Shown: piece by piece, positions 3,001 through 9,000 of the stretch
Layout of the letters: every line of letters begins with the position of its first letter
How positions within the stretch are numbered: the first letter of the stretch is position 1
Position numbers: made by a program
IMG/VR virus record: IMGVR_UViG_2671181012_000022
Strand: one strand, 5' to 3'
From: a virus
Taxonomy: Duplodnaviria > Heunggongvirae > Uroviricota > Caudoviricetes
DNA: 42,877 nt

Positions 3001-6000
3001 TGTTTGCGCATTGATGCTGAGATACGCTTCCAGTCTTCGCGATCCTTGTCGATAACCTCATTTTTAGCCCAGCGATGGATGGTACCGTCAATGTTTCCTG
3101 CATCCACATCCCCGGGCCAGAGGGCGCAGGCCAGTTCTTTATCCAGTGTTTTCCATGTCTGCCTGTATTCGCGACGAATGGCTGTAGTGACAGGGTTGAT
3201 TTTTGCTGCTGAGTTTTCGGTGAGGTGCTGGTTAACTCTGGTGCGTGCGAGATCAACAACAGACGTATATTTTCCGGTTTCCTTGCGTTCACCTTCGCGA
3301 CGTTTTTTCCAGATGCGCATCTCTGCCTGAATTTCTGGCCATTTGGCACCAGGCTTACATTTATGCTTAACCCACCCGATGGCATGCAGTTTAATCTCCG
3401 GATACATGGCGTTAACTTCTGGCATTTTCATCAACGCTTCAACGATATGTCCGTCGAAGGTTGCCATGTCTTCCTGCAACAATTCCTGTGCGCTAATCAC
3501 CATATCAACGGTGATGTTTTCACATGTGTCGAACTTAACCATGACAGCGTTCTGTACTTCAGGGGACAGCTTGTCAAAAGTGACGTTCATCGGATCTGAT
3601 TCAGTCTCAACCGGGACAAAGGAAGCAGACTCCTCATCCCAGCGGTTTTCCAGCATATATTCAGCATCCCAGGAGTCGAGGGCTGGGCGGTGTGTACCGG
3701 GTTTATCCTCACAGACAAGAAATTTATAAGCGCAGTCCTGAGCAGCCGGATAATGTTCAAGGAATTGCCAGTGAAATTTTGCGCGGGCGCGACGTTCATC
3801 ACCGGCTTCAATGGCAGTGGCCACAGCAACAGCGCCCTCGTTTTTTATTGCCTGTTCGTCAGGAATGGCGGCGCAAATAAATATTTTACTCATTGTGTTT
3901 AAACCTCATTACAGATTTCAGGGTGAACGAATCCCTGCCATTGCTGGCATTTTTAATCCGTTGGTATGGCGTTAATATGGCTGGTGGGTTATCCAGCCGG
4001 TGTTTCGTTATTCAGGTACAGCGATACTTTGTTTAACGGGAGGCATTCACCAGAAATTTTTTGCTCGTCTCTTGCCTGGAGGCAGGATTCTTTACTGGCA
4101 TAAATTCCGGTAATCACATTCTGTGGCTCACCTGTTATAAGAAAAACCGTCATCATCAGTGCAAACGCTGAACTCACTGCTGCCCTCCGAAAATGCCAAG
4201 TTCAAGAAGGGCAATTCTGGAGAGTATGGAATTATCATTGAGAAGATAAGGCTCATATTTTCTCATCCTGATGGCGTCCTCAGTAAACTCCCGGTTACTG
4301 AGCAGAATACCAATATTAAAACACCCTTCAGACGTATTAACGTTTGGTAGTGACGTTTCCATTATCGCGTCCTCAACAATGAATTTTGTGATGTGGTGCC
4401 TGGTGCCTCCAGGTGACGTTAACCAGTTAACAATTAACGCCGGATTGTTAGTTGATGTCTGTTACGCCAGTAAAAGACCGCTTGTTTTAACTGTTCCGCG
4501 TGCGCTTAGCCGCATTCACCGCATCACAAAATACACTTTAAAAATGGCGGATATCCATTTCCGCCGAATCACCAGAAAAGTGATAACAGAGGTTGTTGTG
4601 GCGGTGTTGTCACTCAGGTGTATGGTCAACCTGACAACCCGGTGCATTTTCTGGAGCAATGGAGGAAGCCCCAGCCATACTTACCGCCGCGCCATTTCGC
4701 GGATTGCCACAACCGGAAGCGCACGATCGAATTACATTTAACGACGACATATACAGAGAGACTAACTTCGCCGAGCGCTTTCGTGTTGTGTGCCTGCTTT
4801 TAACCACGTCAGGCGAGGTGGACCTGTTATTCCCCAACAACAAGGATCTTGTTAATCTGGATATCCCCAACAACAATAAGAGTATTGAATGTGATCGCTG
4901 AATTAACGGCAGCAATGACGGCTATTCGTGAAACCGCTCAGATTGCAAAACTAATGAACGAGGCAAAAACTCAAGCTGAAGTAAATGCGGCTATTGGTGA
5001 ACTGAACTCAAAGCTTGCATCTATTCAGCACGAATGCGTGTCTCTCGTTGAGCTGGTGAGCACTTATCAAGAAATAAATGCTTCTCTCAAAGCTAAAATT
5101 GCAGAATTTGAAAACTTTGAGGCTCAGACGGAAGGTTATATCCTTAACCAACTTGAGTCGGGAACTTTTGTGTACTCGAAGGAGGTAACCGTGAACGGCG
5201 GCAGCATAATCATGCATCTTTGTCCAAAATGTTTTGGACAAAAGATAGTATCGATACTTCAACCATTCCCGGTTAGAGAATATGAGTTTTTTCATAAAAG
5301 CAGGTGCCTCTACTGTGAAAATCAGTTTCTTATGAATAAAAATCCGGATTATGTATCGCCTCCATCTATTGAGGAGTTGGCCAGAAAACTGAACGGCAAT
5401 CTGTAGATTGTTACTGTTATGGATATCCAGATTGTTAAAGAGCATGCCGGATGCTTGCTTGTGTCCGGCGCGTGTGCACCAGTTCTCCCCGTGGAGGATT
5501 CCTTAACTACCAGACTTCATTAGTCAGAGTTTCTTGCTAACCAGCGACGCGCGCCAGCTTCGGTTTTAAACTTTTTACTTTTGGTATACGTCATCGCGGT
5601 AAACGTGCCGTCCTGGTTAGGGAACACACCGCATACCAGAGATTCGTTGTTGCCAAGATTGAGCGTATCCATGTTGACCTCATTTCCCCTTAACGCCGGG
5701 GTAGCGGAACTAAAAACCTGCTGCGCTGTTATACAAAGTGTTCCCGCCGTCATGTTCATACGCCTCGGGCTGGCTACTTAACCCCTGACCACTGCCTGGT
5801 AACTCGAAGTATTGCCTGGCGTTCTGTGGGGCGGGGTGGGTTGGTTGACATAATGTACTTGTTGTTCATTAATGTAAAGTACTTTTAGTACATTTTTGTG
5901 AGGGATAAAATATCAGGAGGGGATGAGAGGAGCATAAACCCGGAGGGAAGCTACCGGATTTATGCAGATTCAGGAGGCTTTTTGTTTTTTCTTTCGCGCT

Positions 6001-9000
6001 AATTCTTCATAAATTGCGTTGTACTTCTGTTTTTTCTCCTCAAGAGTTTTTAAAAGTTCATCAGTTTCACTGTCAGGGAGTTCATCAAGAAGTTCAATGA
6101 TGATTTTTTGCTTCGGACTTAACTCCTGATAGAAACGCAGGCTTCCGCTTTCTTCAGTGTCCTCCCCCAGAAGGTAAGTTGGTGTTGTTCCGATAAGTGC
6201 TGCCAATTCTTTCAGTTTCTCTCGACGGGGAATTGTCTCTCCATTAAACCATTTACTAACCGCTTTGGGTGTTAGCTTCATTCGACGGGCAATTTCTGCC
6301 TGCCTTCCGTGTTGTTCAAAGCCAGCATTTTCACAGGCTAGCGCAAGCCTGCTGGCGAACTCTTTACGCGCTTCATCTTCATGAACCATAAGTTCAATGA
6401 TATTTGCTATTGAATGTACTGTCAGTTCTGTTATATTTTGTACTCAAAGTTCACATCGTGAGGGTGATATGAGCCATACAACACTTGCAGATGTAATCAA
6501 AGCAGTTCGCGTTTCTGTTGTAGCCGATGTTTGCGGTGTCAGCCAAAGAGCAATCTACAAATGGATGAATAATGGAAAATTACCGCGCACAGAATATACA
6601 GGCGAAACAAATTACGCTGAAAAAATTGCTCTGGCATCAAACGGATTATTTTCTGCTGATGCGGTTTTGACTATTGGCAGGATTAAGCCTACAGCGAATG
6701 AATCACTGGCGGTGAACAATGAAAATCACCCCTGAACAGGTTTGTGAGGCTCTGGATGCCTGGGTATGCCGACCAGGAATGACACAGGAGCAGGCGACGA
6801 TATTAATCACGGAAGCATTCTGGGCTCTGAAAGAACGCCCGAACATCGATGTTCAACGCGTCACGTTTAATGATGGCGAGGTTGATCAACGGGCGCTGGG
6901 CGTTAATCGAGTGAAGATATTCGAACGCTGGAAGGCTATCGACACCAGGGATAAGCGTGAAAAATTCACGGCGCTGATTCCGGCAATTATGGAGGCTATC
7001 CGGGTAAGTGATTTCAGGTTGTATTGTGAAATTACTGACGGAAAAAGCATTACGTACATGATCGCCGGGTTAAACAAAGAGTATGGCGATGTGGTGGAGT
7101 CCGGGCTGCTTTTTGCGGATCCAGTTGTTGTGGAACGTGAGACTGACGAGCTTATAGAAAAAGCCATTGCTTTCAAGCGTGCGTATCGTCAGCAATACCA
7201 ACATTACTTTGCAGATAAACAAATATCTGTCTGGGGTTCGTATGAGTATCGATGCACTACGATGGGCTAAAAAGGTGAAAACCGGCAGTTCATCCAGTAA
7301 GTCAGTATTGACCTGGCTTGCTGATATGTGCGATGCCGATTTGTGCGCATACCCGTCTATATCTGCACTGGCAGAAGTAACGGAACTGAACAAAAAGACT
7401 GTGCAGGACAGTTTACGACACCTGATGGAGATTGGGTTAATTGTTGATACTGGTGAGAGAAAAGGCAGAACAAAGCAAATTGTGGTGTACCGACTTATCG
7501 GTGTAGAAGAAAGTGTTGCCGAGCCTGAATACACCCAAAAACGGGAGTCTTTAAAGGTGGGTAAAATTGGTACTGTTAATAAAAACAGTACCGAAAATGG
7601 TTATGTTTCAGCACAAAACAGACCCAAAAACGGAACTCTTAGCTGCATGGAAAATAACCAAAGACACCCAAATTTTCCATCAAAGACACCCAAAAACGGA
7701 TCACGGAACCCAAAGGAACCCAAAGATCTAAACCCCACACATAACGCACGCGAGAGTGCTCCGACCAGTGAGCAGGAAGTTTTGTCTTTACAGGCAGCGC
7801 CCCCTGTATTCTTGGATGGCCTGAGCGAACCCATCGGGAAATTTTCGATGACTACTGTCTGGCAGCCGTCGCCGGATTTTCGACAACGGGCAGTAGTGTG
7901 GGGTATGGCTCTGCCTGAGCCGGAATTTACACCTGCTGAGCTTGCCGCATTCCGGGATTACTGGATGGCGGAGGGGAAGGTTTTCACGCAGGTTCAGTGG
8001 GAGCAGAAATTTGCCCGTCACGTGCAGCACGTCAGGGCACAGGTAAAACCAGTCAGCAAGGGGGTAAGCCATGCAGCATCAGGTGGCACGGCATCACGGG
8101 CAGTTCAGGAAATCCGGGCAGCACGCGAACAGTGGGAACGTGACAACGGATTTATCAGCAACGGAAACGGCCTGGAAGCTGTGGGAGCTTATGGGGGAGG
8201 TGTATTCGAACCGCTGGACTCAGAAGAACGGGGCCGCACCTTCGAAGCTCTGGATTGCCCAGATTGGTGCGATGACTGAACAGCAAATCCGTCTGGTCTG
8301 CCGTCAGTGCATGGACCGCTGCCGGGCGGGTGAAACGTGGCCCCCGGACCTGGCTGAGTTTGTTGCGCTGATTTCGGAGAGTGGGGCAAATCCATTTGGT
8401 CTTACGGTGGATGCAGTGATGGAAGAGTACCGGCGCTGGCGCAATGAATCCTGGCGATACGACGGGAGTGATAAATACCCGTGGCCACAGCCTGTGCTGT
8501 ACCACATCTGCCTCGAAATGCGTACCAGAGGGATTGAGCGCCAGATGACGCAGGGTGAGTTAAAACGACTTGCGGAACGGCAACTGACGAAATGGGCAAA
8601 GCATGTTGGTAACGGGATGAGTGTTCCGCCAGTGCGACGACAACTGGAAGGGGCGAAACACCCGCAAGGGCCAACGCCAATTGAACGGCTGAAACAGGAA
8701 TACGAACGCCGGAAGGCAGCTGGTTTTATTTGAATCTGAGAAACGATTTTGTCGGAGGAAATTTTAATGGAAACCGTATTTGACGCACTGAAAGCACTGA
8801 AAAGAGCCTCTTCACAGGTAGTGGCGGCCCGCCTTGGAATCAGCCGTGAAGATGCGGTCAACGAACTGTGGAAACTGAAGCGCCGCGGTGAAGCGGATAA
8901 CAAGGGGGCGATGTGGTGGCTGATTCAGGCTGGTGAAAGTGAACCAGTGTCACCGGTACCGAAAGTGACAGCGCAAATGCTGACTGAGGCGATTGAACAA

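Follow-up and report, generated by a model that had tools for sequence, protein, structure and literature searches.

Five 15-bp sites of one consensus flank the repressor gene of a lambdoid Escherichia coli prophage and match the operators of phage HK022

Which sequences beside the repressor gene act as its operators, and whether the two sides share a half-site, is the question raised by the immunity region of IMG/VR virus record IMGVR_UViG_2671181012_000022, a 42,877-nt stretch of Caudoviricetes DNA (the window, hereafter) that is an immunity-switch-bearing lambdoid (Rac/Qin-like) Escherichia coli prophage. A sequence-only reading of the window had marked inverted repeats on both sides of the repressor gene, had seen no obvious common half-site between them and had left the operator assignment tentative. 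We find five 15-bp sites of a single consensus flanking the gene, two in the left operator (OL) and three in the right operator (OR), and we put the probability that they form an HK022-type OL/OR operator system, within an ordinary lambda-like switch, at roughly 0.85.

A shared 15-bp motif on both sides of the repressor gene

Among the inverted-repeat arms detected, two pairs run from one side of the repressor gene to the other (5878–5894 with 6413–6429, and 5881–5892 with 6439–6450) and point to one shared 15-bp unit, TGTAC-N5-GT(T/A)CA. The sites are given below with their mismatches to TGWAC-N5-GTWCA and their positions relative to the putative leftward and rightward promoters, PL and PR.

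Repressor gene, 5970–6389, minus strand: 139 amino acids (aa); Pfam HTH_3, E = 5e-10; HK022-CI-like helix-turn-helix (HTH) at aa 1–75
OL1, 5854–5868: TGTACTTGTTGTTCA; no mismatch; within the PL spacer, overlapping the PL −10 hexamer by 2 nt
OL2, 5878–5892: AGTACTTTTAGTACA; one mismatch; 24 bp from OL1; abuts the PL −35 hexamer
OR3, 6382–6396: TGAACCATAAGTTCA; perfect inverted repeat, with the repressor start codon (CAT, 6387–6389) in its spacer
OR2, 6415–6429: TGTACTGTCAGTTCT; one mismatch; between the PR −35 and −10 hexamers; 33 bp from OR3
OR1, 6439–6453: TGTACTCAAAGTTCA; no mismatch; just downstream of the PR −10 hexamer; 24 bp from OR2

With one mismatch at most allowed, TGTAC-N5-GTWCA has 17 strand matches in the window, a number that no shuffle out of 100 equals and that compares with an expectation of 3.29 ± 2.21. 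Within 600 bp around the repressor gene there are five matching loci, a density not reached in 100 Markov simulations of the window, which placed at most 3 sites in any 700-bp span. The two intergenic stretches hold four of the sites, whereas 3000 simulations at the composition of these stretches gave at most 2; the remaining site, OR3, spans the start codon of the repressor gene. The earlier statement that the two sides lack an obvious common half-site is thus incorrect, given that TG(T/A)AC-N5-GT(T/A)CA stands on both.

Outside the immunity region, ten more loci match TGWAC-N5-GTWCA with one mismatch (at 2263, 2740, 17727, 19899, 28924, 33260, 34854, 37638, 37989 and 40648), scattered and mostly in coding sequence; the expectation over the whole window is about 3.7 loci. 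The exact operator strings are not mentioned in the literature text that was searched.

Correspondence with the operators of HK022 and HK75

The HK022 record X16093 and the HK75 genome both annotate 15-bp operators that correspond one to one with the sites in the window. The experimental standing of the HK022 sites is taken here from the GenBank annotations and from PMC8053113.

oR3: HK022 TGAACCATAAGTTCA, over the cI ATG; identical to window 6382–6396
oR2: HK022 TGTACTATCAGTTCC; window TGTACTGTCAGTTCT
oR1: HK022 TGAACCATAAGTTCA; window TGTACTCAAAGTTCA
oL1: HK022 TGTACTTAAAGTTCA, record positions 2201–2215; window TGTACTTGTTGTTCA, which is also the homologue of HK75 oL1
oL2: HK022 AGTACCAATAGTACA, record positions 2225–2239; window AGTACTTTTAGTACA

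HK022, HK75 and the window agree in the order of the sites, in the spacings of 33 and 24 bp at OR and 24 bp at OL, in the overlap with pR and pL, and in the placement of oR3 over the cI ATG. The likeness extends to the proteins predicted to read these sites. In a tblastn search of phage records, aa 1–75 of the repressor aligned with the N-terminal domain of HK022 CI (its aa 1–74) at 59% identity (E = 7e-32), and the recognition helix, TPKAVSKWFNGE in the window and TPKAISKWFNGE in HK022 CI, matches at 11 of 12 residues; between the cro-like protein and HK022 Cro the identity is 61% over 71 aa (E = 4e-33). DNA similarity to HK022 is confined to 6229–6564 (72%), which covers the N-terminal coding sequence, OR and the start of cro, and to 5850–5896 (85%), which covers OL.

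Beyond these segments the two switches diverge. HK022 CI has 235 aa with an S24/LexA-like domain, whereas the window repressor has 139 aa and a DicA-like C-terminal half; OL and OR are 528 bp apart in the window and 799 bp apart in HK022; a YdaT-like protein is encoded where HK022 has CII; and the leftward operon is Qin/Rac-like (ydfA-like, dicB, recE-like) where HK022 carries nun.

Conservation of the sites among related loci

Conservation was assessed over 92 loci, comprising the window, HK022, HK75, Tritos, two E. coli prophages (86–88% identity), two Klebsiella phages, one Citrobacter phage, one Salmonella phage, two Enterobacter genomes and 80 IMG/VR contigs. A scan of genome contigs returned mostly distant Firmicutes HTH proteins, the two Enterobacter loci being those that could be used. 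The OR3-OR2-OR1 triplet at 33 and 24 bp is present in all 92 loci, and OL1-OL2 at 24 bp in 87, the remainder having short flanks or a different left arm. The half-sites of OL1 are invariant across its 87 loci while the spacer varies, and OR1 likewise keeps constant half-sites around 10 distinct spacer variants in the 92 loci.

Averaged over the 23 distinct OR and 44 distinct OL variants, the half-sites carry 1.92–1.96 bits per position, compared with 1.62 bits (OR) and 1.21 bits (OL) in the 5-nt spacers and 1.40–1.42 bits outside the sites. When the 49 distinct site sequences are pooled over the five operator positions, positions 2, 5, 11, 12 and 14 (G, C, G, T and C) are invariant. Conservation that is higher in the half-sites than in the spacers would be the pattern expected of half-sites contacted by protein, and bias from ascertaining loci by the motif itself is a small concern because no locus dropped out at OR.

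These data also bear on whether the sites are unbound relics of an HK022-like ancestor, left behind by a swapped short repressor that does not bind them or that regulates in some other way. Such a history would fit the lack of any relationship between the repressor and HK022 CI in their C-terminal halves, as well as the portal pseudogene of an identical E. coli genome (described below). We nevertheless consider it very unlikely, since half-sites exceed spacers and flanks in conservation across variants drawn from both short-repressor and HK022-type loci, the recognition helix has been kept, and the module is found both in the sequenced phage genomes Tritos and vB_EcoS-673R7 (repressor 93.5% identical) and widely in E. 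coli, at least 80% of 5760–6470 being present in 1047 of 5426 complete genomes (about 19%, or roughly one in five).

Dissection of the inverted repeats flanking the repressor gene

The three inverted repeats marked earlier are all present in the sequence:

AAAGTACTTT palindrome, 5876–5885: left side, composite
AATGTAC, 5852–5858, and GTACATT, 5888–5894: left side, inverted pair
TTCAAT-N10-ATTGAA, 6393–6414: right side, composite of the OR3 right half and the PR −35 hexamer; a single exact copy in the window

None of the three is individually beyond chance. The window holds 43 perfect 10-bp palindromes (about 42 expected), 90 perfect 7-nt inverted repeats with a gap of 20–40 nt (55 expected) and 22 perfect 6-nt inverted repeats with a gap of 10 (10.5 expected), and TTCAAT-N10-ATTGAA itself, with up to two mismatches allowed, is matched 3 times against 2.64 expected, so that it shows no enrichment. 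Each repeat resolves into parts of the 15-bp sites and the promoters. In the AAAGTACTTT palindrome the PL −35 hexamer (TTTACA, minus strand) is followed by the OL2 half AGTAC and by three bases of the OL2 spacer, which is variable. The AATGTAC/GTACATT pair joins halves of different operators, AATGTAC belonging to OL1 as its left half and GTACATT to OL2 as its right half. On the right, TTCAAT is the GTTCA half of OR3 with two bases added, and ATTGAA is the PR −35 hexamer (TTGAAT) preceded by one base.

The sequence-only reading was therefore correct in placing operators on both sides of the repressor gene, and every repeat that it marked touches a half-site of the candidate 15-bp operators. It mis-parsed the repeats as the operator units; these are the five sites, which share one consensus and have their homologues in the HK022 operators. 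The comparison of homologous immunity regions that it had proposed as a check, carried out here over the 92 loci, separates the two, with the 15-bp sites kept and the composite palindromes decaying. In HK022, Omnitron and S9-5 the counterpart of AAAGTACTTT is AAAGTACCAA. In HK022 the right-hand repeat reads TTCAAC...ATTGAC (−35 hexamer TTGACT), and in the Klebsiella phages TTCAAT...CTTGCG; the right arm is CTTGCG and the −35 hexamer TTGCGT in the Klebsiella, Citrobacter and Enterobacter loci, so that the repeat is lost there although both OR3 and OR2 are preserved. In the E. coli variant met most often, the right arm is CTTGAA, which leaves the repeat imperfect.

It follows that the original parse, with AAAGTACTTT and AATGTAC/GTACATT as left operators and TTCAAT-N10-ATTGAA as a right operator of differing half-site, is highly improbable. 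The repeats are exact and do lie in the right intergenic stretches, but the frequency of each in the window is that expected by chance, HK022 and the Klebsiella phages have broken palindromes together with homologous repressor heads and Cro, and a single 15-bp motif on both sides accounts for every arm. A narrower proposal is that TTCAAT-N10-ATTGAA is an additional site in this lineage, lying atop OR3 and the PR −35 hexamer and bound by the YdaT/CII-like protein, Cro or a host factor. The repeat is a perfect 6 + 6, every short-repressor E. coli locus retains TTCAA...TTGAA and has a ydaT-like gene as well, and protection of the ydaS promoter region by the YdaT protein of Rac shows no clear motif (PMC11879457). 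The OR3 half-site and the PR −35 hexamer, which are separately constrained, already account for both arms, however, the commonest variant breaks the symmetry, the repeat is not enriched in the window, and the known YdaT boxes (ATGATT/TTGATT-N6-AATCAA) differ in sequence and spacing. We regard an additional site as unlikely, and TTCAAT-N10-ATTGAA is probably not a binding unit of its own.

Putative promoters and a hairpin at the repressor gene

Promoters were placed by a consensus scan, and their assignments are putative.

PR, 6410–6437, plus strand: −35 TTGAAT (6410–6415), 16-nt spacer, −10 TATATT (6432–6437); 9 of 12 positions, with an upstream TG
PL-like, 5850–5878, minus strand: −35 TTTACA (5878–5873), 17-nt spacer, −10 CATTAT (5855–5850); 9 of 12 positions
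PRM, the candidate maintenance promoter of the repressor gene, 6397–6425, minus strand: −35 CTGACA (6425–6420), 17-nt spacer, −10 TATCAT (6402–6397); 10 of 12 positions, the best in the region
RNA hairpin, 5932–5965, minus strand: immediately 3′ of the stop codon of the repressor gene; stem of 12 bp with a 10-nt loop

Relative to the operators, the PR and PL hexamers stand where HK022 has its annotated pR and pL hexamers. PR would serve cro, the ydaT-like gene and the replication genes, and PL the leftward early operon with the DUF1391/ydfA-like gene, dicB, the exonuclease, xis and int. A TAnnnT hexamer is kept at the −10 place of PRM in all relatives, and the PRM −35 hexamer lies inside the OR2 spacer, which (as TxTCA) is the only operator spacer conserved in all variants. 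In HK022 a "PM-10" is marked just upstream of the cI ATG (loopometer supplement, PMC8053113). Since the PRM −10 hexamer directly abuts OR3 and the repressor ATG lies in the OR3 spacer, the repressor mRNA is probably leaderless or near-leaderless.

The hairpin has a minimum free energy of −19 kcal/mol (z = −4.15; none of 200 shuffles as stable), and its stem is kept in all 23 distinct variants of the short-repressor locus, in which the loops vary and A-U pairs change to G-U. It has no adjacent U tract and so is not a canonical terminator; possibly it is a 3′-end or terminator-like element between the repressor gene and OL/PL.

A repressor with an HK022-type head and a DicA-like C-terminal half

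Past its DNA-binding head the repressor resembles DicA of prophage Qin, to which it is 30% identical over aa 30–137 (E = 9e-16). The NCBIfam DicA model matches at E = 6.7e-16 over positions 20–132 of 135, with a score of 58 bits that is below the 101-bit cut-off. No alignment with HK022 CI extends beyond aa 75, and no DNA similarity to HK022 is found in 5897–6228. The protein ends at aa 139 with no S24 Pfam match that would indicate a LexA/S24 autocleavage domain. A search of Protein Data Bank sequences with the repressor returned P22 C2 alone (E = 0.007), and the same search with the YdaT-like protein returned nothing. On these alignments the repressor is a mosaic of an HK022-type DNA-binding head and a DicA-like C-terminal half that is not RecA-cleavable. 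The C-terminal half of lambda CI carries dimerization and cooperativity, and by analogy that of HK022 CI presumably does so too.

In the DicA/Gifsy class of short repressors, which have no site for RecA cleavage, repression is lifted by antirepressors, of which Rem is one (PMC10448788). Because the window repressor, with its DicA-like C-terminal half, likewise offers RecA no domain to cleave, we predict that induction would depend on an antirepressor or on instability of the repressor, as it does for the DicA and Gifsy repressors. A tblastn search of the window with K-12 Rem gave nothing better than E = 1.4, and the open reading frame at the position of Qin rem (12637–12909) is unrelated to Rem; a cognate antirepressor could be encoded outside the window or act in trans. 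A single LexA-box-like sequence of the form CTGT-N8-ACAG is present in the window, CTGTTAATAAAAACAG at 7573–7588, inside a DnaT-like replication gene and at chance-level frequency.

Proposed mechanism and points that weigh against it

The placement of the sites and their homology to the HK022 operators suggest how an HK022-type switch would operate in this prophage. Dimers of the 139-aa repressor would read TG(T/A)AC-N5-GT(T/A)CA through their HK022-CI-like helix-turn-helix. Occupancy of OR1 and OR2 would block PR, as OR2 sits between its −35 and −10 hexamers and OR1 over the transcription start, and occupancy of OL1 and OL2 would block PL, so that the four sites together would silence both early operons. 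OR3, because it straddles the repressor ATG and the start of a probably leaderless mRNA, would mediate negative autoregulation and is the likely target through which Cro would stop repressor synthesis. Binding itself, the order in which the sites fill, cooperativity and looping between OL and OR are inferred.

Several observations speak against this interpretation or limit its reach. Functional evidence for the window repressor is all transferred from HK022. The OL3 site (53 bp from OL2) and the OFR site (about 300 bp downstream of OR) are present in HK022 and HK75, OL3 also in Omnitron and S9-5, whereas the window has neither, no counterpart being found with up to two mismatches. Shared descent of close relatives could explain part of the half-site conservation. 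On a simple lambda-like model, the position of the PRM −35 hexamer inside OR2 makes it hard to see how a lysogen would go on making repressor, as its place in the OR2 spacer means that a dimer bound at OR2 should get in the way of RNA polymerase at PRM. Cooperativity and looping may differ from those of HK022 because the C-terminal half has been replaced by a DicA-like one. Finally, the portal gene is frameshifted in the identical genome NZ_CP045712.1 (window ~31930–34676), which makes selection on the switch in this copy uncertain.

Comparison with other prophage switches

The DicA-DicC switch of Qin resembles that of the window in its short repressor (~135–139 aa), which is homologous in the C-terminal half and lacks a RecA cleavage site. 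In both, a cro-like gene diverges from the repressor gene, and a PL-like promoter situated downstream of the repressor gene leads into a ydfA...dicB operon. Qin differs in its DNA-binding head and in its intergenic repeats, which are of the TTAG...CTAA type and not TGTAC-N5-GTTCA; no DicA-type TTAG-N6-CTAA site is found in 5760–6480.

The RacR-YdaS-YdaT module of Rac and the PaaR2-YdaS-YdaT module of CP-933P share with the window the divergent repressor and cro-like genes followed by a ydaT-like (CII-analogue) gene, and three operators between the divergent genes. The spacer of the third contains the repressor ATG, just as the racR ATG falls in the spacer of RacR O3 (PMC9638921). The paaR2 mRNA of CP-933P is leaderless (PMC8630535). 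The operators of both systems, WTAGGC-n3-GCCTAW for RacR (PMC9638921) and GTTTAGTAA palindromes for PaaR2 (PMC8630535), are unrelated in sequence to those of the window, and the searches made did not identify the window repressor as a homologue of either protein. Motifs of RacR, PaaR2, DicA, the YdaT box and lambda CII were considered for 5760–6480 and rejected as absent, those of RacR, PaaR2 and DicA being missing from both intergenic stretches; the only RacR-pattern matches (three mismatches) and PaaR2 half-site matches (one mismatch) are weak and lie inside the repressor coding sequence.

Lambda shares the tripartite OR between divergent cI and cro, OL positioned on PL, adjacent sites about 24 bp apart from center to center, and a leaderless cI. 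It differs in having 17-bp sites (15 bp in the window) of unrelated sequence, three OL sites rather than two, OR2 beside the PRM −35 hexamer rather than over it, and a RecA-cleavable repressor.

Genomic setting of the switch

Positions 5400–7300 are 100% identical to chromosomes of Shiga-toxin-producing E. coli (STEC) and of other E. coli. In the annotation of an identical genome the genes run int, xis, RecE-like exonuclease, dicB, DUF1391 (ydfA-like), repressor, cro-like, YdaT-family, replication, Q, lysis, head and tail. Genes close to the switch are as follows.

cro-like gene, 6469–6735, plus strand: 88 aa; homologue of HK022 Cro; labelled YdaS-like HTH in genomes; PHROG 35, E = 7e-15
YdaT/CII-like gene, 6719–7270, plus strand: downstream of the cro-like gene
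dicB, 4174–4362, minus strand: in the leftward operon

The boundary between the cro-like and ydaT-like genes is a mosaic junction, at which 6708–6800 shares 94% DNA identity with a stretch downstream of dicC in the K-12 prophage Qin. The ydaT-like start codon (6719) is spanned by GTGAACAATGAAAATCAC (6712–6729), which is identical at 13 of 18 positions to the Rac YdaT-box ATGATTCATGAAAATCAA, where the ydaT ATG also lies in the spacer; as an inverted repeat it pairs at just 4 of 6 positions per arm, and the resemblance is a weak hint. The leftward operon also contains an open reading frame at 4849–5406 on the plus strand (PHROG 1244, function unassigned), and the DicF small RNA has no match at the Rfam gathering score in the dicB region (4174–5406).

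Two copies of the STnc100 small RNA family (Rfam, 135 and 168 bits) lie at 18048–18254 and 18534–18744, in an otherwise unannotated 1-kb stretch that runs from a DNA methyltransferase gene to a SASA-family esterase gene. At about this position (18048–18744) related Shiga toxin phages appear to have their toxin genes; the annotation of the identical genome shows no stx gene within the window. A sok antisense RNA (Rfam, 110 bits) adjoins hokD, with coordinates 12145–12320 and 12315–12470. An ompC copy stands amid the tail genes in NZ_CP045712.1 (window ~41442–42596) and, taken with the frameshifted portal gene, suggests that the prophage may be defective.

Implications for lambdoid switches

These findings do not challenge the current understanding of lambdoid immunity, in which the HK022-type switch was already known, and they document a chimeric short repressor within it. 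The tentative operator guess is replaced by precise coordinates for five candidate operators and three putative promoters. Because its leftward promoter would drive dicB and recombination genes, the switch bears on prophage-encoded toxicity in STEC.

The mosaic repressor offers a natural experiment on how far the geometry of a lambdoid switch depends on the C-terminal cooperativity domain. We tentatively entertain, as conceivable though short of probable, that it represents a natural domain swap, in which the DNA-reading head of HK022 and its exact operator geometry were joined to a DicA-type half that RecA does not cleave, the chimera still binding cooperatively and looping; if so, the spacing of the operators would be set by the promoters and Cro, not by the cooperativity domain. 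Cross-immunity with HK022-type phages is predicted. If the chimera does bind cooperatively and loop, the complete E. coli genomes that carry the module, about one in five, would be homo-immune with these phages and yet respond to another inducing signal, an antirepressor or repressor instability.

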